Assembly: GCA_045539595.1 (NCBI GenBank)
Contig: JAZQFQ010000058.1
Location: 31,736-95,735, forward strand
From: Eubacteriales bacterium
GTDB taxonomy: Bacteria; Bacillota; Clostridia; Oscillospirales; CAG-272
Length of the DNA: 64,000 nucleotides
Direction of reading: 5' to 3'
In this document: positions 1 to 33,937 of the stretch, one piece after another
Position numbering within the stretch: the first letter of the stretch is position 1
Layout: each line of letters starts with the position of its first letter
Made by a program: the position numbers and the translations under genes
The notes under the pieces: generated by a model
The model's database searches: none
The model's input: only the letters and a program-made list of their open reading frames with translations
Told to the model about the DNA's origin: nothing

Positions 1-581
1 TGGGACAGCGTGGTGAGGGTGATCTCCTCGCCGAGATGATCCCGGATAAAGCGAAGAATCTCGTTTCCGTCGTGCACCGCATCCCCCTGATACGCCCCCT
101 CCGCGATGCGGAGAATGGATATCATATCCGAGCGGGCATGGCAGGACCACATTTTATCCGTGGGATGATTGTCAATATGCTGGCCTACCCGCAGAAAGTG
201 CCGGTTCGACAGTTCGTACTCCTCATCGTTGAGGGGCAATATTCCCACAAAGGATGCATCGCGCTGACGGAACAGATGAAAATCCGGGTAGCCGAAGCGG
301 GAGCGCATCTCCTCGTACATGGACAATCCGATGACGTTGTGATTCAGATTGACGTTGTAGAAATACGGCTGAAAATGAAGATTCAGCGCCTCGTACCGCC
401 CGCCCTCCACACGCAGCGTATCGTCCTGGGAAAGACACAGCATGTACTTCCCGTCCAGATAACAGCGGACGCCGTTCAATGTGACAGACAGGCGGGCTGC
501 CCGCAGGCAGATGATGGAATACATCGTGTCCGAGGACTCCAGCGTATTTGTCATGTGGATCAGTGAAAAATCGTAGTGCAT
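1..581 (-). CDS. AraC-family transcriptional regulator, N-terminal sensor portion (partial; continues past the left edge)
   Basis: Not in the ORF track because there is no stop in the window. My minus-strand translation from ATG 581..579 stays open to nt 3: MHYDFSLIHMTNTLESSDTMYSIICLRAARLSVTLNGVRCYLDGKYMLCLSQDD...GNEILRFIRDHLGEEITLTTLS. The last block looks like the entry into an AraC HTH. The listed + ORF 36..566 is its mirror image. Confidence 0.5.
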   Translation of the reverse strand, partial: MHYDFSLIHMTNTLESSDTMYSIICLRAARLSVTLNGVRCYLDGKYMLCLSQDDTLRVEGGRYEALNLHFQPYFYNVNLNHNVIGLSMYEEMRSRFGYPDFHLFRQRDASFVGILPLNDEEYELSNRHFLRVGQHIDNHPTDKMWSCHARSDMISILRIAEGAYQGDAVHDGNEILRFIRDHLGEEITLTTLS

Positions 582-894
582 ATATTTCTCCGCATTATCG
601 TTTCTTGTGAATTCATTATACTATACCCTTCTGTAATCCGCAATGCAAATCTGCACAAATAATAGCACAATTTACAATTTTCCGTTTTCCTTCACGTTTC
701 CCACATTATATGCCATTTCATCGCGCGGTCAAAAAAGCCGGGATAAATACGCCTTTTTTTGAAGATAAGGGGTATATTTCACGCAGAAGTAAACAGATGG
801 ATAAAAAACAATTTCAAAAATATGCCTGCACAGTTTTAAATAAGTCTGACATCCGGGTTTTCTCAGCTGTATATGCAATTGAGGGGAATTTTTA

Positions 895-926
895 TGCAAA
901 ATAGAATGCCCTGCGCGAGGCAGGGC
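895..926 (-). terminator. probable rho-independent terminator of the HTH-PolC-like gene
   Basis: GCCCTGC-gcgag-GCAGGGC (908..926) lies 6 nt after the stop, followed on the minus strand by ATTCTATTTTG. Confidence 0.5.
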
Positions 927-931
927 GAGGA

Positions 932-2350
932 TTACAACATAATTTCATTGAATTCTTTTGGATAATGGATCTTATGCCACATCAGCATGGCTGCCAATTG
1001 AATGTAGCTTACGCCATGGGCTTTATGCATCAAAATTTTGATCTTGCCGATGGAATCGATAAACCAATCGTCCATACCGATAGACTTCAGCTGCATTTTT
1101 ATATGATGGGGAATACCGTTTTTGGCATAGAGTCCCCGACGCGTGTTCTCCATAACCGTATAGGCAAATCCCGTGTCCGTCAATCCTTTGCTTATCATCC
1201 TCTCCTGCATATGGCGGAAGACATCATCGCCATATGCAATTACTTTCCCCACAGGGGTGCCTTGCGCAACAAGTTTCTCTGCGTTGTCGATCCACACACC
1301 CGTACCATGAGACAAGCCAAATATCTGTACCAGATCATGAAAAGAGTTTGCGGGAACCGCATGCAGCATATGTTTCATATATTTTATCTGGAACTCCGGA
1401 ATACCGTCCGTGCTGCCGCTTCGAAATTCCCGCAGAATCTCATCGGAGGCAAATGGAATCCTGTCGAAAGAAGTTGCGGTGGCCTGTGCCAGTGTCTGAA
1501 AACGTGTATATTCTTCTGCAGCGATAACCGCAATGGATCCTTCTGCGTTTTCAGAGGATACCTTAATGGTGATAAACCGGTCTGCTTCCCATTCTTTTCG
1601 CGTCAGTGTATACTCCTTGAAATAGTCCTCAATACATTCTACAGCCGGGCGAAAAAAATCCGGCGATACGGATACGAAAACATGTGAGCCGTGATTCACC
1701 TCATGACGACAGTTCTCAAACGGGATATCGTGTCCGTCCGTGATCATGGCTCTGCCGCATGTACATTCTTTCGGCGGAAGATCCCAACCATCCGCGGTGC
1801 TGTCATCAAAGACGACCCTATGACAAGCGGTACACCGATAATGCGGCTTCAGCGGATTGATTTTCGTTGCTCCCAAAAGGTACGCTACCAGCGATGCTCC
1901 CGTTCCTCCTTTTACCATAACATACTCACAACGCTTTTCAGCATCCGCCAAAAGTACGGACAGCATGTCAAAATACACGATACTATCCGTATTCTGCATT
2001 TCTGCCTGCTCTGTCAGAAAACGGTTTGCGATTGCAACAGGGACAGGATTCCCGTAACGTTCGCACATAGCATCAAAGGCTTTGTTCCATAGTTGTTTTT
2101 TCGTGGCAAACACTCCTTTTGTGTCCTTCTTTTCAAAGGAACGATATTTGCAGGACAAAAGCTCATCCACGCTGATTTCAAGCGCCTCGCTGAGTTTGTA
2201 TAGAATACTGCTTTGCGGCATGGAAGAACCGTTCTCCCATTTGGAAACCGCCTTGTCGGAAACGCCGATGAGCACGCCGAGCTGATACTGCGTAAGGCCC
2301 CTGCGTAATCGCAGTTCATGCAGAAAATTACCAAAACAATAATCTCTCAT
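932..2350 (-). CDS. XRE-type HTH protein fused to a truncated PolC-like (Pol III alpha Zn-finger/palm/fingers) domain; catalytic motifs apparently lost
   Basis: ORF 932..2395 begins with GTG inside the predicted promoter. ATG 2350 has GGAGGA 4 nt upstream. The N-terminus [36 protein letters not shown] is a Cro/XRE HTH. The rest aligns by eye in colinear blocks with the PolC in this window ([44 protein letters not shown]...[10 protein letters not shown]). Confidence 0.75.
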   Translation of the reverse strand: [472 protein letters not shown]

Positions 2351-2377
2351 AAAATCCTCCGTCTGTTTGCTGTCTAT

Positions 2378-2406
2378 ATTGTACCAAGATTTCACCTCTT
2401 AAACAA
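2378..2406 (-). promoter_or_regulatory. candidate sigma-A promoter of the HTH-PolC-like gene
   Basis: Minus strand TTGTTT-17 nt-TACAAT. The -10 lies 28 nt before ATG 2350. The GTG at 2395 lies inside it. Confidence 0.4.
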
Positions 2407-2471
2407 GATAGGAGTTATCTACCATAGGTAGAAATGACATTGGATAAAAAATCGACTTTTATGAACGAGAG

Positions 2472-2514
2472 CAGAATCTGTCCCAATGTATAGAAATCTG
2501 TCCAACAGATTCTG
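2472..2514. promoter_or_regulatory. inverted repeat / repeated motif; candidate operator in the divergent spacer
   Basis: CAGAATCTGT (2472..2481) and ACAGATTCTG (2505..2514) are perfect 10-nt inverted arms. The loop contains a further direct copy, AGAAATCTGTCC. A related GAAATCTGCC occurs at 2682..2691 in the pyrP promoter spacer. Confidence 0.4.
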
Positions 2515-2678
2515 TATTCGCGAAGGCAATGACGAAAAATGATCATGAAAAAATACATTTCCGATAAGACTTCCGCCGCGTGCAGCAGTCTCATTTTTGA
2601 CGTATTTTCCTTATTTTCACCAGTCCACCCAGCCGCAGAATAAAAAATTAAAAAATTCTTCTTAATTTGTCAATATAG

Positions 2679-2708
2679 TTTGAAATCTGCCGAAGAATGT
2701 GATATGAT
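2679..2708 (+). promoter_or_regulatory. candidate sigma-A promoter of pyrP-upp
   Basis: TTTGAA-18 nt-TATGAT with an upstream TG (TGATATGAT), 42 nt before the ATG. Confidence 0.4.
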
Positions 2709-2749
2709 TAATGTTGTGAAGCCCCACTAATTTTTTCGGAGGATCCATC

Positions 2750-4210
2750 ATGGACAAGAAATTGATCTACGACATTGGCGACAAACCAAAATTCGGGCAA
2801 ATGCTCATTTTTGCACTCCAGCAGCTTCTGGCGATCCTTGCGGCTACCATTGCGGTTCCCACGATTATCGGTTTGCCGACGCAGATTCCTGCTGCCATTC
2901 TCGGCGCGGGTATCGGTACCTTGGTATACCAACTGTTTACGAAATTCAAAAGCCCCGTATTTCTGGGAAGCTCCTTCGCGTTTTTGAGTTCCCTCGGCGT
3001 AGCCATCGCCTACGGTTACTGCGGTATCGTCCTCGGTTCCATTGTGGCGGGATTGGTCTACGTGATCATCGCGCTGATCATTCACTTCACCGGCACCGCA
3101 TGGGTGGATAAACTGATGCCCCCCGTGATCATCGGCCCCACCGTGGCGCTGATCGGTCTTTCCCTGTCCGGCGCGGCTATGGGCGATATCGTTCGGGCCA
3201 ACGCCACCACTCTGTACGGATCCTACAATTTGGTCGCTCTGCTGTGCGGCCTCATCGCTTTCCTTACCATCGTAATCTGTTCCACCCAGAAGCGGGTAAA
3301 GATGGCCCGTCTGATTCCGTTTATTATCGGTATTGCGGCCGGTTATGCGGCTGCTGCCATCTTTACTTTTATCGGCATGGCCACCCACTGTGAGTATCTG
3401 ATGATCATCAACTTCCAGCCGATCATTGACAATTTTGTGGCAGCGGACGGTTCCTTCCGCGGCATCTCCGCTTTCATCGACTATCCGCACATTGCCATTC
3501 TGGAAAGCATTAAGGAACTGGCCACCGGCAATCTTTCCCCGGAGATTCTCACTGCCAATCCGAATGCGACCCTTCTGAATCTGGGCGGCATTGCGGAAGT
3601 GGTTATCGCTTTCCTCCCCGTGGCTCTGGTTGTATTCGCCGAGCACATTGCGGATCACAAGAATCTTTCCTCCATCATCGATCGGGATCTGATCAAGGAG
3701 CCCGGTTTGACACGGACTCTGCTGGGCGACGGTGTGGGCTCCATGGCCGGCACCGTGTTCGGTATCTGCCCCAACACCACCTACGGTGAATCGGTAGGCT
3801 GTATCGCTATCACGAGAAACGCCTCCATCGCTACCATCACCACCACCGCGTTCATGTGCATCGTGCTTTCCTTCTTCAGCCCGCTGATGGTGATTCTGCA
3901 GACCATTCCCTCCTGCGTCATGGGCGGTGTTTGTCTGACGCTGTACGGCTTCATTGCCGTATCCGGATTGAAGATGTTTAAAAACCTGGATCTGGACAAT
4001 AATAAGAATCTGTTCGTGGTTTCTTCGATTCTCATCTCCGGCATCGGCGGTCTGGCGATCCATATTCCCTATGCTATCGCAGAAAACGGTGCCATCACCA
4101 ACACGATCCAGATCACCTCGATCGCGACGGCTCTGATCATCGGTATCATCACCAACCGCATCCTGACCCGCGTGGAAAACAGTAAGTTCGGCAAGGAAAA
4201 AGACAACTGA
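2750..4210 (+). CDS. pyrP: uracil permease (NCS2 / xanthine-uracil permease family)
   Basis: 486-aa polytopic membrane protein. The N-terminus MDKKLIYDIGDKPKFGQMLIFALQQLLAILAATIAVPTIIG is typical of uracil permeases. GGAGGA RBS present; immediately followed by upp. Confidence 0.8.
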   Translation: MDKKLIYDIGDKPKFGQMLIFALQQLLAILAATIAVPTIIGLPTQIPAAILGAGIGTLVYQLFTKFKSPVFLGSSFAFLSSLGVAIAYGYCGIVLGSIVAGLVYVIIALIIHFTGTAWVDKLMPPVIIGPTVALIGLSLSGAAMGDIVRANATTLYGSYNLVALLCGLIAFLTIVICSTQKRVKMARLIPFIIGIAAGYAAAAIFTFIGMATHCEYLMIINFQPIIDNFVAADGSFRGISAFIDYPHIAILESIKELATGNLSPEILTANPNATLLNLGGIAEVVIAFLPVALVVFAEHIADHKNLSSIIDRDLIKEPGLTRTLLGDGVGSMAGTVFGICPNTTYGESVGCIAITRNASIATITTTAFMCIVLSFFSPLMVILQTIPSCVMGGVCLTLYGFIAVSGLKMFKNLDLDNNKNLFVVSSILISGIGGLAIHIPYAIAENGAITNTIQITSIATALIIGIITNRILTRVENSKFGKEKDN

Positions 4211-4930: not shown

Positions 4931-5953
4931 TTATCTCTGCACACGACCGGAGCCGTCGCCGCCGGCCAGTTTTTCTACTTCAGCCACGCTGACGCGGTTG
5001 TAGTCGCCTTCCACGCTGTGCTTCAGCGCGGATGCGGCCACAGCGAACTCAATGGCCTGCGCGGAGGTTTTGCCTGTCAGCAAAGCGTAAATCAATCCGC
5101 CGCCGAAGGAGTCACCGCCGCCTACGCGGTCCACGATGTGGAGGTGATAGCTCTTGGAGAAGCAGTAGTTCTCGCCGTCGTAGAGCATGCCCGCCCAATC
5201 GTTGTCGCTGGCAGAGATGGATGTACGGAGGGTGATGGCCACCTTCTCAAAGCCGAAGGTATCGGCCAGCTGCTTGGCCACGGATTTGTATCCCTCGTGA
5301 TTCAGCTTGCCGCCGTAGATATCCGTATTCTCCGCTTCGATGCCGAACACATCCTTGGCATCCTCTTCATTGGAGATGCACACGTCCACGTACTTGCAAA
5401 GCTCCGTCATGGTCTTTCTTGCCTGCTCCCGGGTCCAAAGTTTGCCGCGATAGTTCAGATCGCAGGAGATCTTCACGCCGCGGGCCTTGGCGGCCTTACA
5501 GGCCTCCAGGCAGATGGCGGCCACGTTCTCGCCCAGGGCGGGAGTGATTCCCGTAAAGTGGAACCAATCGGCACCGTCGAAGATGCTGTCCCAATCGAAC
5601 TCCTCCGCCTTGGCTTCAGCGATGGCAGAATGAGCGCGGTCATAGATGCAGACGGATCCCCGCTGAGAAGCGCCTTTCTCCAGGAAATAGATGCCCACGC
5701 GATCACCGCCGCGGACGATCTCGTCGGTATCCACGCCGAAATAGCGGAGAGAATCCACAGCCGCCTGACCAATGGCGTGCTTGGGCAACTTGGTAACGTA
5801 GGTGCTGTGCAGACCGTAGTTGGCCAGAGACACGGCCACGTTGGCCTCGCCGCCGCCGAAGGTAGCCTGCATCTGATCGTTCTGGAAGAAGCGATAGTAT
5901 CCGTTGGGTGCCAGGCGAAGCATCAATTCACCGAATGTAACTACTGTTTTCAT
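4931..5953 (-). CDS. kdgK: 2-dehydro-3-deoxygluconokinase (PfkB/ribokinase family)
   Basis: 340 aa, MKTVVTFGELMLRLAP...FGGGEANVAVSLA...DRVGGGDSFGGGLIY. Its ATG overlaps the eda stop (ATGA). Sits in the hexuronate operon. Confidence 0.85.
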   Translation of the reverse strand: MKTVVTFGELMLRLAPNGYYRFFQNDQMQATFGGGEANVAVSLANYGLHSTYVTKLPKHAIGQAAVDSLRYFGVDTDEIVRGGDRVGIYFLEKGASQRGSVCIYDRAHSAIAEAKAEEFDWDSIFDGADWFHFTGITPALGENVAAICLEACKAAKARGVKISCDLNYRGKLWTREQARKTMTELCKYVDVCISNEEDAKDVFGIEAENTDIYGGKLNHEGYKSVAKQLADTFGFEKVAITLRTSISASDNDWAGMLYDGENYCFSKSYHLHIVDRVGGGDSFGGGLIYALLTGKTSAQAIEFAVAASALKHSVEGDYNRVSVAEVEKLAGGDGSGRVQR

Positions 5954-6507
5954 GCGTTAGCCTCCATTTTATCCAGAGATTCTTTGACGAAGAAGCTGCC
6001 GCCGATGGCTGCGATCTTGTCAAAGGCCAGAAATTCATCGATGTTGGAGCGATCTACGCCGCCGGTAGGAATGAATTTCACCTGCGGGAACGGAGCGGAC
6101 AGGGCCTTCAGGGCTTTCAGGCCTCCATACACATTGGCCGGGAAGAATTTGACGGTGGTAATGCCCAACTCCAGGGCCTGCATGATCTCGGTGGGCGTAA
6201 CACATCCGGGATAATAGGGGATGTTCCGCTCACGGCAGATATTGGCTACGGCCACTGACAGGCCGGGGGATACGATAAACGTAGCACCGGCGGCCAGTGC
6301 GGCTTCGCACTGCTCCGCATTGATGACGGTGCCGGCACCGATTTCCATATCGGGATACTGCTTGACCGCATAGGCGATGGCCTCGGCGGCGCAGGCGGTG
6401 CGGAAGGTGATCTCCGCGCAATGGATGCCGTTGTTTTTGAGGGCAGTCAGAATCTTATCCGTTTCACCAAGTTCCTTGATGACAACAACAGGAATAAACT
6501 TTTCCAT
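5950..6507 (-). CDS. eda: KDPG / 4-hydroxy-2-oxoglutarate aldolase
   Basis: 185 aa, IPVVVIKELGETDKILTALKNNGIHCAEITFRT...GAGTV...FIVSPG...VKFFPA...FIPTGGV. GGGAGA RBS present. Confidence 0.85.
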   Translation of the reverse strand: MEKFIPVVVIKELGETDKILTALKNNGIHCAEITFRTACAAEAIAYAVKQYPDMEIGAGTVINAEQCEAALAAGATFIVSPGLSVAVANICRERNIPYYPGCVTPTEIMQALELGITTVKFFPANVYGGLKALKALSAPFPQVKFIPTGGVDRSNIDEFLAFDKIAAIGGSFFVKESLDKMEANA

Positions 6508-29509: not shown

Positions 29510-32500
29510 TCAGAACAAGGTTAGCTGATTGGTGGCGGTCAAGCCTTTCAGCACGCCGTTGCGTTCCAGGATCTCCACAACGGTCTTGGATATACCCGCC
29601 TCCCGTTTCAAGGCCTCAATGGAATAGATCTCCTTCTCATCGCGGCAGCGCATGATGTTATCCGCCGCGGTCTCGCCCAAGCCCGGCAGGGAGCCGAAGG
29701 GCAAGCGGATCTTTCCGTTTTCCGGCACAAATTTGCGGGCGTGGGATTTCTGCAGATCCACGGGAAGGAAGGAGAATCCCCGCTGATAATACTCGTTGAC
29801 CAGCATCAGGGCGTTGTAGATTTCCACATCCTTCTGGAGCAGTTCGTTCTTTCGCTTTTTCAGATCCATCATGGTATCGTACACGTATTTCTTGCCGCGC
29901 ATGACGATCTCGGAATCGAATCCGCCGGGTGCGGCAGAGAAATAGCCGGCGTAGAACTCCACGGGATAGTAGACCTTATACCACATGAGGCGCAAGGCAT
30001 CGATGGCATAGGCCGCCGCGTGGGCCTTGGGGAACATGTAGCGGATCTTCTGCAGCGAATCGATATACCACTGGGGCACGCCCTGCTCTACCATGGTGGA
30101 CATCATATCCTCGGGGATCTTGGATCCCTTTTTGTTTTTGCGAACGAACTCCATGATTTTGAAGGCTTTGCCCTTCTCGACGCCGTATTTCTGGATCAGC
30201 GTCAGCATGATGTCGTCACGGCACCCGATTACCTGGGAGACGGTACAAACGCCGTCCCGGATCAGATCCTGGGCATTGCCCACCCACATTCCCGTTCCGT
30301 GGGTCAACCCCTCGATCTGCAACAGATCCGCAAAGTTTTTTGGCTGTGCTTCCATGAGAATATCCCGGCTCAGTTTTGTTCCCATCTCGGGCAAGCCGAG
30401 GGTGGATGTCTTGGAATCGATCTGCTCCGGGGACACGCCGATAGGCTCAGTGGAAGTGAATCCCTGATAGGTGATGGGATCCGTCAGGGGCACATCCAGG
30501 ATATTGATGCCGGAGAACTCCTCCATCCGCTTGTACTTGGTGGGAATATCGTGTCCGAGGATATCCAGCTTGAGGATGGTATCGTGGAGATAGGTAAAGG
30601 CGAAATGGGTGGTGATGATATCGGAATCTGCCTTGTCCGCAGGATGCTGGATGGGAGTGAAGTCGTAGATATCGTACTCCTGGGGCACAACGATGATCCC
30701 GCCGGGGTGCTGACCCGTGGTACGCTTGGTGCCGAGGCATCCGCCGATCAAGCGCTCCATCTCCGCCCGGTTGACGGAGATGCCCTTATCCTCCAGAAAA
30801 TGAGCCGTATAGCCGAAGGCGGTCTTATCCGCCAACGTACCAATGGTGCCGGCCTTGAAGGCCTTTCCCGCACCGAACAGCACTTCCGTGAACTTATGGG
30901 CATCCGCCTGCACGTCGCCGGAGAAGTTCAGATCGATATCCGGCGTTTTATCGCCGTAGAAGCCAAGGAACGTTTCAAAGGGAATATCGTGGCCGTCCCG
31001 GACCATATCCGTGCCGCACGCGGGGCAATCCTTCGGCGGCAGATCGAAGCCGGAGCCTACGGAGCCGTCCTCCACAAATTCCGTATGGCGGCAATGGGGA
31101 CAGCGGTAGTGGGGCGGCAGGGGATTGACTCGGGTGATTCCCGCCATGGTGGCGGCGAAGGAAGATCCCACAGAGCCGCGTGAGCCCACCTGATAGCCCT
31201 TGGATTCGCTGTTTTCCACCAGCTTGCGGGCGATGATATACATAATGGCGAATCCGTTTTTGATGATGGAATCCAATTCACGGGACAGCCGGGCGGACAC
31301 CTGCTCCGGCAGGGGATCGCCGTACAGTGTCTTGGCCAACTCCCAGCATTTATTCGTCAACTCTTCCTCCGCGCCGTCGATGTGGGGCGGATAGTTCCCC
31401 TCGGGAATGGGTCGGACCTTCTCGATCATATCGGAAATCATTTTGGGATTCTCAATAACGATCTCCCGGGCGGTTTCGGGATCCAGATAGTCAAATTCAG
31501 AGAGCATTTCCTCCGTGGTGCGGAAGTACAGCTCCGTGATCTTATCCGCGTCGGAGAACTTCATACCGGAGAGGATGATGCGTCGGAAGATCTCGTCCTC
31601 CGGATCCAGATAGTGGGCGTCGCAGGTGGCCACCACCGGCTTGCCCAACTTCTTACCCAACTCGATGATCTTGCGGTTCAGATCCTGCAGCGCGGCGTCG
31701 TCCGCCACCTTTCCCTGCTCCACCAGGAAGCGGTTGTTGGAAATAGGCTGTACCTCCAGGTAATCGTAGAAGGAGGCGATCTCCTCCAACTCATTCTGGG
31801 GTTTGCCCTCCAGGACCGCAGTGAACAGCTCTCCCGCCTCGCAGGCGGAGCCGATGATGAGTCCCTCTCTCAGCTCCATCAGGCGAGTTTTGGGGATTCG
31901 CGGGTTCCGTCGGTAGTATTTGAGGAAGGAATCGGACACCAGCCGGTAGAGATTCTTCAGTCCGACGGAATTTTTCACCAGAATGATCTGGTGGTAGGTT
32001 TTCAGTTTCAAAGGATCGGAGCGGCTGCTCATGGCCGTATTCAGCGCATCCATGGTGCGGATGCCCTCGTCCGCCAGCTTGTCGACCATTTTCTGATAGA
32101 TCATAGCCAGCATCTCCGCGTCATCAGAGGCACGGTGATGATTGAACTCGCCCAGTTTGAAATAGGTAGCCAGGGTGTCCAGTTTGTGCTTATTCAGTTC
32201 GGGATTCACATAACGGGACATGGCCACCGTGTCCAGATAGCCGTTGGTAAAGGGGATCCCCTGATCCTCGGCGGCTTTGCGGATGAAGCTGATGTCAAAT
32301 CCCGCGTTGTGGGCCACCAGCATCCGATCGCCCACGAAGGCCAGAAATTCCGGCAGAACTTCCTCGATGGGACGTTCGTTTCTGACCATCTCATCGGTGA
32401 TGCCGGTCAGACGGACGATCTCCTCGGGAATTTCCACGCCGGGGTTGACCAGCGAATTGTACACTTCCAGCACCTGTCCGTCCTTGGCGCGGACAGCACC

Positions 32501-33937
32501 GATTTCGGTAATTTTGCAGGTCTGGGGAGACAGGCCGGTGGTCTCGATATCGAACACCACCACTTCCTCCTGCAGATCGGACACGCCCTTGCCGTACACG
32601 GCCCGGGCGGTATCGTCCACAAAATACGCCTCCACGCCGTAGATGACCTTCATGCCCAGCTTTTCCGCTTTGAGCATGGCGGTGGGGAATGCCTGCAGAT
32701 TGCCGTGATCCGTGATCGCTACGGCTTCGTGTCCCCAGCGGTGAGCGGTTTCCACCACTTCCTCCGGCTTGGCCGTGGCATCCATGGCGGACTGGCAGGT
32801 ATGCAGATGCAATTCGATTCGCTTCTCGGGGGCGCTGTCCTCCCGCTTGATCTGCTTCACTTTTTGCACATCGGCATACTGCAGATAGATCTCACCGTCG
32901 AACTTGTCCACCTTCACGTCCCCGCGGACAGCGATGGCGGATCCGGTTTTGAAAATACCGAACAGTTCGTCCTGTGCGTCCTCGGTGATTTGCGTTTTGA
33001 TAAAAATCGACGAATCCCGATCGGTCAGACCGATGTTGACAGCCAATTTACTGCTGTTCCGGATCTCCTTGGTGGTGGAACCGAACACGGTACCGAGGAC
33101 GGTGACACATTTATCGGTAGATTGGAGGGAACGGATCGGCACGGGATTTTCCACCACGAAGCCGTCGCCCACCAGCACCTCAGGCGCGGACACATCAAAC
33201 TTCATGCGGCCACTTTGTACGATGCCCTCGCCGATGACAGCGGATTCGGCACTTCCCTCAAAGAGGGAGTTCACACGGGTGAGATTGGGCTTGTCCGCCG
33301 ATGCATTTCCATCGGTGGGAGCGGCGGCTTCCGCCGCACGGGCCGCGGCTGCGGCGGCCTGGCGGGCGGGAATCTGGGCGGCTTCTTCCCGAAGCCACGC
33401 TTCCCTGGCCGCTTCGTAATCCTTATAATGATCAGCATAATCGGCGGCCTGCACAATCTTTACCGTGCGCTCCACGCCGAACTCACTGCGGATAATGCCT
33501 GTCAGGATCTCGCCGGTTTTGGCCAGATCCAGCAAATTGATCCCGCCCTGCAAAAAGGGGATGCGGATCTCAATGATATCGCCGTTTTCCACGATTTCAT
33601 ACCGATCAAAAAAGCCGTTGACCACACTGCCGATGCGCTTGGCCTCACACAGCACCTCATCCATATACGATGTGGTAAACAACTCAGAGGGATAATGGGG
33701 GAATAGGCGAATGGAATTCTGGCCGTAGAACTCCGTCAGCGCCGCCTCCGTTTCATACAGAACGGCTTTGCGGAACAGTTTGGGGAGGGTGAAGTTGACC
33801 TCCACCATCTTGAGTTCCTGGGCGGCGCGGATGCGCACATTTTCCGCCAAGGCAAACAACTCACGCTGTGCCCGGGACACGGGCATATAGCGTGAGAAGT
33901 ATTCACCAAGTGTTCTTTTTTTCTTTTCCACAGCCAT
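29510..33937 (-). CDS. polC: DNA polymerase III alpha subunit, PolC type
   Basis: ORF 29510..34117 is 5'-extended. Start is ATG 33937 (MAVEKKKRTLGEYF) after GGAGAA. Contains PHP ELHLHTCQSAMDA, DEDD exonuclease VVVFDIETTGLS, Zn finger HYRCPHCRH..CPACG, catalytic PDIDLNFSGD and KLDILGHD, and C-terminal HhH. The ATG shares one nt with the ispG TAA (TAATG). Confidence 0.97.
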   Translation of the reverse strand: MAVEKKKRTLGEYFSRYMPVSRAQRELFALAENVRIRAAQELKMVEVNFTLPKLFRKAVLYETEAALTEFYGQNSIRLFPHYPSELFTTSYMDEVLCEAKRIGSVVNGFFDRYEIVENGDIIEIRIPFLQGGINLLDLAKTGEILTGIIRSEFGVERTVKIVQAADYADHYKDYEAAREAWLREEAAQIPARQAAAAAARAAEAAAPTDGNASADKPNLTRVNSLFEGSAESAVIGEGIVQSGRMKFDVSAPEVLVGDGFVVENPVPIRSLQSTDKCVTVLGTVFGSTTKEIRNSSKLAVNIGLTDRDSSIFIKTQITEDAQDELFGIFKTGSAIAVRGDVKVDKFDGEIYLQYADVQKVKQIKREDSAPEKRIELHLHTCQSAMDATAKPEEVVETAHRWGHEAVAITDHGNLQAFPTAMLKAEKLGMKVIYGVEAYFVDDTARAVYGKGVSDLQEEVVVFDIETTGLSPQTCKITEIGAVRAKDGQVLEVYNSLVNPGVEIPEEIVRLTGITDEMVRNERPIEEVLPEFLAFVGDRMLVAHNAGFDISFIRKAAEDQGIPFTNGYLDTVAMSRYVNPELNKHKLDTLATYFKLGEFNHHRASDDAEMLAMIYQKMVDKLADEGIRTMDALNTAMSSRSDPLKLKTYHQIILVKNSVGLKNLYRLVSDSFLKYYRRNPRIPKTRLMELREGLIIGSACEAGELFTAVLEGKPQNELEEIASFYDYLEVQPISNNRFLVEQGKVADDAALQDLNRKIIELGKKLGKPVVATCDAHYLDPEDEIFRRIILSGMKFSDADKITELYFRTTEEMLSEFDYLDPETAREIVIENPKMISDMIEKVRPIPEGNYPPHIDGAEEELTNKCWELAKTLYGDPLPEQVSARLSRELDSIIKNGFAIMYIIARKLVENSESKGYQVGSRGSVGSSFAATMAGITRVNPLPPHYRCPHCRHTEFVEDGSVGSGFDLPPKDCPACGTDMVRDGHDIPFETFLGFYGDKTPDIDLNFSGDVQADAHKFTEVLFGAGKAFKAGTIGTLADKTAFGYTAHFLEDKGISVNRAEMERLIGGCLGTKRTTGQHPGGIIVVPQEYDIYDFTPIQHPADKADSDIITTHFAFTYLHDTILKLDILGHDIPTKYKRMEEFSGINILDVPLTDPITYQGFTSTEPIGVSPEQIDSKTSTLGLPEMGTKLSRDILMEAQPKNFADLLQIEGLTHGTGMWVGNAQDLIRDGVCTVSQVIGCRDDIMLTLIQKYGVEKGKAFKIMEFVRKNKKGSKIPEDMMSTMVEQGVPQWYIDSLQKIRYMFPKAHAAAYAIDALRLMWYKVYYPVEFYAGYFSAAPGGFDSEIVMRGKKYVYDTMMDLKKRKNELLQKDVEIYNALMLVNEYYQRGFSFLPVDLQKSHARKFVPENGKIRLPFGSLPGLGETAADNIMRCRDEKEIYSIEALKREAGISKTVVEILERNGVLKGLTATNQLTLF

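Follow-up and report, generated by a model that had tools for sequence, protein, structure and literature searches.

The 64,000-nucleotide stretch of DNA analyzed here, which comes from an Eubacteriales bacterium (contig JAZQFQ010000058.1) and is referred to below as the window, carries a minus-strand gene for a protein of 472 amino acids (aa) whose neighbors are genes for a xanthine/uracil-family permease (pyrP) and upp. Sequence profiles and a structural model identify the protein as an XRE/Cro-type helix-turn-helix (HTH) domain joined to a reduced core of the DNA polymerase PolC, in which the palm, the zinc module and the fingers can be recognized. The best explanation, which we hold with fair confidence on sequence evidence, is a functional, self-contained and probably autoregulated XRE-family regulator with a pseudo-polymerase input domain. 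The longest open reading frame (ORF) in this frame spans 932..2395, with a GTG start that lacks a ribosome-binding site (RBS); the 472-aa product has a 100%-identical counterpart (P0001) and over 120 homologs that match it at full length. The gene has a G+C content of 46.7%, which is lower than that of the window (54.0%) and of polC (56.3%), and is flanked by spacers of 350 bp (582-931, 38% GC) and 399 bp (2351-2749, 36% GC), in agreement with the original prediction for this locus, which had described the gene from its letters as low in G+C between two AT-rich spacers.

The N-terminal domain was recognized by the Pfam profile HTH_3 at aa 10-64, with the whole profile covered (E = 3.5e-15; 56.2 bits against a gathering score of 23). 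Its helices in an AlphaFold2 model (6-16, 21-28, 32-39, 47-57 and 61-65) form a five-helix repressor-type fold, and Foldseek matched the N-terminal 66 residues to the P22 c2 repressor with a root-mean-square deviation (rmsd) of 0.6 Å and a TMt of 0.87. Pfam also placed DNA_pol3_alpha at aa 87-168 and DNA_pol3_finger at aa 291-365 (E = 3e-11); HTH_3 and a partial DNA_pol3_alpha match had been anticipated by the original prediction, and the fingers profile came in addition.

The remainder of the protein is collinear with the core of the PolC encoded in the same window (29510..33937, minus strand). Two BLASTP blocks lie in the same order in both proteins, aa 82-213 with PolC 855-989 (38% identity, E = 3e-26) and aa 313-467 with PolC 1178-1328 (37% identity, E = 8e-24), and hhalign covered PolC 857-1329 in a single alignment with the family profile (E = 3.7e-56). 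Deletions in this alignment fall over PolC 1030-1130, where PolC has its thumb, and the loss of the thumb corresponds to the shorter distance between the zinc module and the fingers (99 aa, compared with 188 aa in PolC). The BLASTP alignment begins at PolC residue 855, and Pfam gave no PHP or exonuclease match in the 472-aa protein. At the other end, the protein stops at a position that matches residue 1329 of the 1475 in PolC, and the clamp-binding and duplex-binding (HhH) region is absent, as is the OB domain. The NCBIfam PolC equivalogs (NF001688/TIGR01405) scored 221 bits against a cutoff of 873 and 211 bits against 1043, far below what a full-length PolC requires. The AlphaFold2 model, which was built from 40 homologs, reached a pLDDT of 90.1 and a pTM of 0.80, and its best Foldseek matches were the PolC structures 9QRL, 9QPC, 9QRN and 3F2B (E from 5e-24 to 9e-22, TMq 0.72), with DnaE-type Pol III alpha ranking after them. 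Five of the six defining features of PolC were lacking and one, the four-Cys zinc module with the fingers, was present, and the XRE-type HTH was found both by profile and by fold. The architecture claimed by the original prediction, namely an XRE/Cro HTH followed by a collinear PolC core with all four zinc-finger cysteines, a shortened stretch before the fingers and none of the N-terminal/OB, PHP, exonuclease and HhH regions, was therefore reproduced by profile, alignment and fold.

The original prediction had further proposed that the catalytic aspartates are gone. In Enterococcus faecium PolC the DxD catalytic residues are D972 and D974 (PMC12592400). In the hhalign alignment, the PolC motif T-P-D-I-D-L-N lies opposite G-S-H-V-F-V-S, with H223 and F225 in place of both DxD aspartates, and the counterpart of the strand with the third PolC Asp consists of hydrophobic residues throughout the family. 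Conservation was assessed in 40 relatives with at least 45% identity and in 48 diverse representatives with 25-54% identity. Asp or Glu did not occur at the first DxD position in any of the 40 close relatives (S in 24, H in 8 and G in 5, with N, A and F in addition), and acidic residues were not in the majority in the diverse set, which was led by G (8), H (6), S (6), R (4), N (4) and Y (3). The second position was acidic in 23 of the 40 and 24 of the 48 sequences, and across close orthologs it read D, D, Y, F, H, L, D and A. As judged from these alignments, the polymerase active site is lost and its catalytic positions are unconstrained. The catalytic carboxylates having disappeared together with the thumb and other parts, the core is therefore predicted to be unable to polymerize DNA. 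Together with the architecture and the G+C content, each factual point of the original prediction was borne out.

Conservation is distributed unevenly over the protein. Among the 48 representatives, mean conservation was 0.69 for the HTH, 0.63 for the zinc module, 0.44 for the N-terminal palm helices and 0.42 for the fingers, and the former catalytic sheet had the same value as the interdomain linker (0.26). The recognition helix A-V-S-K-W-E was invariant, as were C173, C176, C196 and C198 (1.0). In permutation tests against a core background of 0.41, the flanks of the zinc module reached 0.84 (p < 5e-5) and 11 positions lining the C-family nucleotide pocket reached 0.66 (p = 0.0003), whereas the three catalytic positions (0.29) did not differ from the background. 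The 11 positions comprise the G-x-x-G-x-S loop, the finger R-R-G and Y-x-F-P-K-A-H...Y; in E. faecium PolC, Y1274, F1276 and Y1284 within the motif Y-x-F-P-K-A-H-x-x-x-Y line the pocket for the incoming nucleotide or inhibitor (PMC12592400). The overall pattern resembles that of a pseudoenzyme, with binding residues kept and catalytic residues lost, and the most constrained part of the core is the zinc module, not the pocket.

The protein belongs to a large family. A word-indexed protein search returned 825 matches, the best 120 of which were nearly all 469-500 aa in length with the same domain content, and the sole name given in any source was 'helix-turn-helix domain-containing protein [Clostridia bacterium]'. 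A profile search of 1.84 billion cluster representatives yielded 1,020 proteins at E <= 1e-30, with at least about 50 full-length clusters (50% identity) of HTH plus short core among the top 150 profile matches. A genome-contig scan seeded on HTH peptides gave mostly HTH-only relatives and about 11 full-length members among the 80 loci listed. The named source genomes were Oscillospiraceae, Acutalibacteraceae, Candidatus Flemingiibacterium, Acetatifactor and unclassified Eubacteriales, from human, sheep, goat and other gut samples, that is, gut and rumen Clostridia. Two candidates were set aside: an 858-aa match (L016) is a fragment of a PolC-type gene, and P0040 (L003:8001-9992, 663 aa), which appeared to be a fusion of Sigma70_r2, HTH and a PolC-like core, is a gene-calling artefact in which an ORF of the extracytoplasmic function (ECF) sigma type reads in frame through a full operator, promoter and RBS module into the family gene.

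Ratios of nonsynonymous to synonymous substitution rates (dN/dS, Nei-Gojobori) between close orthologs were 0.10-0.19 overall and 0.06-0.25 in every domain, with 0.19 against an ortholog of 89% identity, and all of the ten orthologs checked were intact, with 458-473 aa and no frameshifts. These values indicate a functional gene under purifying selection and not a decayed fragment. In several pairs, dS in the HTH-coding 5' end (window 2153-2350 and the orthologous segments) was 0.2-0.5, compared with about 0.6-1.9 elsewhere, which is two- to fourfold lower. This agrees with unusually conserved DNA upstream of the gene and could reflect either constraint at the nucleotide level or recombination of a 5' module.

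The upstream DNA contains a putative operator, an inferred promoter and a conserved leader (Table 1), and the same layout recurs in the family: TCTACC-N3-GGTAGA, about 11 nt, a -35 element, a 17-nt spacer, TGnTATAAT, the leader AGCAAGCAGACGGAGGA and the ATG. Orthologous loci have TTGAAG at -35 and TGnTATAAT at -10, compared with TTGTTT and TACAAT in the window. Palindrome, promoter and RBS are kept upstream of more than 18 family loci with unrelated flanks, and the perfect palindrome of the fetched loci always lies 67-82 nt before the ATG of the family gene. The 15-mer is identical in the 89% ortholog. In L012 both half-sites are altered together (TCCAC...GTGGA), and in the divergent members L001, L009 and L015 the right half-site is altered. 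The palindrome has a single match in the 64 kb window even with 2 mismatches, for which the chance expectation is 0.94; the operator therefore carries weight because its position is conserved across loci, and not because it is unique in the window. A scan of metagenome contigs for the operator TTCTACCTNNGGTAGA gave no information on a regulon, since 119 of the 120 loci listed were chance matches from unrelated environments, and Rfam found no match in window 500-3000. A second inverted repeat, CCAGACGC-AA-GCGTCTGG, was noticed about 20-40 nt upstream of the palindrome in L004, L005, L007 and L089; it shows compensatory changes between loci (CCGGACG...CGTCCG in L089) and occurs only in this closely related subgroup.

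Table 1. Window coordinates of the gene, the domains of its predicted product and the adjacent regulatory features.
Feature	Position	Strand	Details
Coding sequence of the HTH plus apparently dead PolC-core protein, 472 aa	932..2350	minus	ATG after GGAGGA at 2355-2360; stop codon 932-934
XRE/Cro-type HTH DNA-binding domain, aa 1-66	2153..2350	minus	HTH_3; P22 c2 fold match; recognition helix A34-V-S-K-W-E39
Flexible interdomain linker, aa 67-83	2102..2152	minus	pLDDT 54-71; conservation 0.26
N-terminal palm helices and G-x-x-G-x-S loop, aa 84-162	1865..2101	minus	match to PolC 857-935 (BLASTP, hhalign); DNA_pol3_alpha
Four-Cys zinc module with flanks NPLKPHY...DGHDIPFE, aa 163-213	1712..1864	minus	C173, C176, C196, C198 and G206 invariant
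Remnant palm beta-sheet without thumb and catalytic carboxylates, aa 214-292	1475..1711	minus	hhalign; AlphaFold2 strands 223-228 and 248-277
Fingers domain, aa 293-472, stopping where the PolC fingers stop	935..1474	minus	DNA_pol3_finger; BLASTP; R404-R405-G406-x-Y408, K443-A-H445
Intrinsic terminator hairpin followed by T-run, directly 3' of the stop codon	908..926	minus	7-bp stem with 6 GC pairs
Putative operator, perfect palindrome TCTACC-TAT-GGTAGA (TCTACCTATGGTAGA)	2418..2432		centered at about -54 from the inferred transcription start
Inferred sigma-70-type promoter	2378..2406	minus	-35 TTGTTT at 2401-2406; 17-nt spacer; -10 TACAAT at 2378-2383
Conserved leader with RBS (AGCAAACAGACGGAGGA)	2355..2371	minus	GGAGGA at 2355-2360; kept in almost all loci

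The same type of HTH and the same palindrome also precede genes with unrelated C-terminal parts, consisting of a domain of about 490 aa in L037 and L039 and of a membrane domain in L049 and L062. The HTH and its operator therefore behave like a portable module that is joined to different input domains. By eye, the C-terminal domain of about 490 aa in L037:3341-5191 and L039:2012-3850 contains the motifs DDGWD and YWKIDW, which are glycosidase-like, and Pfam gave no match to it; this unassigned domain is a candidate for another enzyme-derived input domain on this DNA-binding module.

A role in DNA-binding regulation is very probable for the protein, given its XRE-type HTH, the recognition helix of which is invariant, and the palindromic operator, which is conserved at the same offset upstream of all family genes examined. 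Binding to the palindrome, autoregulation and a sensor role are what we infer beyond this. Most likely a dimer of the N-terminal HTH occupies TCTACC-N3-GGTAGA just upstream of the gene's own -35 element, and the C-terminal residues, about 390 in number, would form the non-catalytic input module of a one-component regulator. The retained pocket of this core may bind a small nucleotide-like ligand, or its strongly conserved zinc module a protein partner, and/or the core may supply the dimer interface; in this way it would modulate occupancy of the operator. With its own putative operator, promoter, RBS and terminator, the gene is a self-contained unit. It behaves as an accessory gene, which the original prediction had considered possible, having a lower G+C content and no conserved synteny even at 89% identity.

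Several observations weigh against this explanation or parts of it. The operator, at about -54, overlaps neither the -35 nor the -10 element, such that repression is not the evident outcome and occupancy may either activate or repress. A single operator copy in the 64 kb window does not allow a regulon to be defined, paralogous HTH proteins use the same palindrome, and binding by the 472-aa protein itself is read from the invariant recognition helix. Gene neighborhoods provide no consistent functional theme. With regard to the input domain, pocket residues erode in divergent members (H445 0.48, R405 0.33), the window copy reads I-L-M-H-K-A-H in place of Y-L-F-P-K-A-H, with I439, M441 and H442 replacing Y, F and P, and the conservation of the pocket could come from structural constraint alone. 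Furthermore, the core is mildly acidic, with a median net charge of -6, which together with the loss of the thumb argues against the binding of a primer-template. Of the interpretation offered in the original prediction, the part concerning a polymerase-derived pseudoenzyme on a DNA-binding regulator thus stands on the fold, the catalytic loss, the purifying selection and the palindromic operator, whereas a sensor of deoxynucleotides (dNTPs) or DNA ends is a tentative reading, the pocket being conserved but eroding.

The leading specific candidate for the input, which we put forward tentatively, is a nucleotide-like ligand. By analogy with NrdR and PurR, the dead pocket would bind dNTP or NTP without turnover and its occupancy would control DNA binding, which would tie transcription to the supply of nucleotides. 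The conservation of the G-x-x-G-x-S loop, R404-R405-G406 and Y-L-F-P-K-A-H above background, which is not shared by the catalytic positions, is as expected for such a sensor, and some neighbors are related to nucleotides: pyrP and upp in the window, NUDIX genes in L084 and L086/L087 and a pyrophosphatase fragment in L088. However, loss of the aspartates leaves no metal ligands for a triphosphate, and the pocket itself is degraded in divergent members and, in part, in the window protein. Most contexts have no connection with nucleotides, and the pyrP-upp neighborhood, whose conservation the original prediction had proposed to map, is incidental: it is absent at the 89% ortholog and the operator does not occur in the promoter region of pyrP, for which reasons a functional link was rejected. 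The NUDIX hydrolase genes lie immediately upstream of members (L084:7359-7844, L086:7463-7870 and L087:7463-7870; one divergent and one co-directional), and the two cases are independent, with 32% identity to each other. In L088 a short pyrophosphatase-like ORF (5667-5993) abuts a family member. Such adjacency may reflect a nucleotide theme or chance.

Second to a nucleotide-like ligand comes a protein partner bound through the zinc module. In this rather unlikely case, the zinc module and the palm surface would keep a contact made by PolC or by an inhibitor of PolC, and the protein would report or titrate a replisome partner by mimicry. The zinc module with its flanks is the most constrained part of the core and the only one kept from genuine PolC through all short forms, which speaks for this reading. 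However, no partner of the PolC zinc module is defined in the accessible literature, and the reviews checked are silent on its role; the clamp-binding and C-terminal regions of PolC are absent, and no conserved neighboring gene could encode a partner.

The surroundings of the family genes bear on a further explanation, which we regard as distinctly improbable, namely that the protein is a repressor of a mobile element or prophage and controls the genes of that element. No conserved operon partner was found in the approximately 17 distinct contexts inspected; NUDIX genes (two independent cases) and other HTH_3 genes turn up repeatedly, but not with any consistency. The neighbors included HTH_3 genes, ECF sigma/anti-sigma pairs, NUDIX genes, the pyrophosphatase fragment, permeases and unrelated metabolic genes, and in some cases there was an integrase, a serine recombinase or a restriction-modification system with PemK nearby. 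A mobile repressor would be consistent with the latter genes, with the low G+C content, with a context that varies even at 89% identity, with an HTH that is closest to the phage repressors P22 c2 and RstR, and with the McrC-like genes adjoining the long form P0177. However, when 50,697 phage and 72,556 plasmid records were searched by tblastn with the core as query, there was no close member, only genes of the full-core PolC type with less than 40% identity. BFVD contained no similar architecture or viral structural counterpart, PADLOC-DB 2.0 matched only the HTH region (RmrA, HTH_VI and CapH, aa 6-97) and provided no defence model for the rest, and PHROGs matched only with HTH or generic polymerase models. 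The neighbors in the window are housekeeping genes, and a search for flanking repeats around the low-GC segment found none.

Other features of the surroundings are recorded here. HTH_3 proteins of 300-380 aa often adjoin members (L001:9544-10683; L005:628-1683 and 1825-2718; L009:2670-6375), and those in L009 form a tandem array of three. In the window itself, a minus-strand gene starts at 581 and leaves the left edge (window 1-581), with 193 aa visible; a promoter-like TTGACC-16-TATAAT at 732-705 precedes it, and Pfam gave no match to the visible N-terminal part.

Residual enzymatic activity, with nucleotidyl transfer catalyzed by other residues of the Pol-beta-like palm, is very improbable: weak fold matches to nucleotidyltransferases (TUTase, OAS and the CCA-adding enzyme) and an acidic D-E-E patch after the last palm strand in many members point towards it, but there is no conserved equivalent of the three carboxylates, the sheet is the least conserved region (0.26), and the patch is variable and reads A-E-E in the window protein. 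The weakest explanation, in which a PolC-like gene was duplicated or acquired and is now decaying without a function of its own, would account for the massive loss of domains and catalytic residues but is effectively refuted by the low dN/dS in all domains, the ten orthologs free of frameshifts, the constant length of about 472 aa across more than 120 clusters, the confident compact fold and the conserved promoter, RBS and terminator.

The preferred explanation, a regulator with a pseudo-polymerase input domain, can be placed within a broader set of PolC-like proteins. The profile search also recovered short cores of 400-440 aa without an HTH. Among these stand-alone forms, P0178 (L095:7001-8257) is encoded just downstream of a 700-aa WYL/LRR protein. 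In P0176 (L096:1927-3459) an FtsK-gamma winged helix is fused to the short dead core in place of the XRE HTH, representing an independent fusion. Longer relatives include proteins of 700-800 aa with PHP and core that end right after the fingers (P0216, P0230 and P0244) and proteins of 900-960 aa with HTH_3, PHP and core (P0177, L091:817-3591; P0209; P0227, L093:241-3096; P0238), which have palm, thumb and fingers without the exonuclease and the C-terminal tail. The N-terminus of the long HTH forms (MKDFVFGNLL...) is clearly homologous to that of the 472-aa family. In addition, P0183 (980 aa) joins DnaB_C, a C-terminal fragment of a DnaB-type helicase, to PHP and a PolC-like core with an intact catalytic triad, an arrangement suggestive of a compact replicase from a phage or other mobile element. 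Downstream of the P0177 gene in L091 come two small overlapping ORFs and, after these, a pair of genes for proteins of 615 aa and 921 aa (DUF2357/PDDEXK_7, McrC-like).

In a joint alignment, D-x-D and the third Asp were kept in P0177, P0227, P0182, P0183, P0223, P0233 and P0243, whereas P0209, P0238, P0216, P0230 and P0244 have lost one or more of these Asp and the short forms have all lost them. The forms that keep them may therefore be active polymerases, and P0177 and P0227 may be HTH-tethered active C-family polymerases. In a neighbor-joining tree of 276 shared core columns, the short cores formed one clade (100/100 bootstraps) nested among PHP-containing non-canonical forms, with genuine PolCs separate (87/100). 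Because of this tree, with which the identity of 37-38% and the difference in G+C content agree, the 472-aa protein is not a recent derivative of the resident polC but the reduced end of a non-canonical PolC-like lineage.

In the accepted view, C-family polymerases serve replication and repair only. Here a PolC core apparently survives as a non-catalytic domain of a DNA-binding protein, in a large family of gut and rumen Clostridia that is under purifying selection and, as far as found, undescribed. A graded series leads from possibly active HTH-PHP-PolC-like proteins to the minimal dead form, and the sharply defined candidate operator of each member makes the system immediately testable. A speculative generalization is that the shell of a polymerase active site has been turned into a signaling domain, in which a thumb-less, metal-free pocket and the zinc module would bind a nucleotide, a PolC-targeting nucleotide-analogue toxin or a PolC-binding protein, such that the cell, or a mobile cassette, could read replication or nucleotide status directly through a mimic of the target and turn it into transcription from TCTACC-N3-GGTAGA. 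Under the same proposal, the HTH-tethered, exonuclease-less and triad-intact members of the clade could synthesize DNA at targeted sequences, for which there is no described precedent among C-family enzymes. PolC-targeting antibiotics are in clinical development, and the extent of their spectrum among Oscillospiraceae and Lachnospiraceae is being studied (PMC11963600). A pocket that has kept the ability to bind nucleotides or PolC-directed compounds would constitute a novel type of sensor, with relevance to these antibiotics; if the zinc module is the functional center, the family would provide a stripped-down system for learning the role of an essential and poorly understood element of PolC.

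Among known systems, PolC-type DNA polymerase III is the closest. It shares with the 472-aa protein the N-terminal palm helices, the G-S loop, the four-Cys zinc module and the fingers in the same order, with 37-38% identity over 290 residues for the PolC of the window. However, the 472-aa protein is without the N-terminal domain, OB, PHP, DEDD exonuclease, thumb, clamp-binding motif and HhH tail, has lost the catalytic carboxylates and has gained an N-terminal XRE HTH, and is thus not expected to be a polymerase. The non-canonical PolC-like proteins (HTH+PHP+core, PHP+core and DnaB_C+PHP+core) group with the short cores outside genuine PolC, end after the fingers and have in common with them an insert of three residues, including an aromatic one, that follows the finger R-K/R-G motif; they retain PHP and the thumb, and several retain the catalytic Asp, all of which the 472-aa protein has lost. 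As far as found, these proteins have not been characterized in the literature. Surveys of C-family polymerases (PMC3919608; PMC12926913) removed truncated or diverged sequences and describe no HTH fusions or dead C-family cores. A full-text literature search for PolC with HTH or pseudoenzyme gave nothing relevant, in line with the original prediction, which knew of no characterized regulator with this architecture.

Dead polymerase paralogues are known from other families, such as ImuB, other inactive Y-family members and PolX with a disrupted site (PMC12926913). In these, a polymerase fold has likewise been selected for a non-catalytic role after loss of the active site, but they are repair or mutasome scaffolds without a sequence-specific HTH and are not homologous to the 472-aa protein. 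The P22 c2, 434 and lambda-type repressors have the same HTH fold (rmsd 0.6-0.7 Å, 35% identity) and a short palindromic target. However, the S24 peptidase or cI-type dimerization domain of phage cI/c2-type repressors is absent from the 472-aa protein, its place being taken by the PolC-like domain, and the putative operator lies upstream of the -35 element instead of overlapping the promoter.

The nearest parallel in logic is found in one-component regulators with enzyme-derived sensors, such as NrtR (a Nudix-like domain with a winged HTH), Bacillus subtilis PurR (phosphoribosyltransferase-like), ROK repressors and MocR/GabR. These likewise combine a DNA-binding domain with an enzyme-derived domain that has no catalysis and may keep substrate-binding residues, and the 472-aa protein shows the same combination of a DNA-binding domain and an enzyme-derived domain without catalytic residues. 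There is no relation in sequence or fold between them, and the enzyme part that the 472-aa protein appears to have recruited is the catalytic core of a replicative polymerase.

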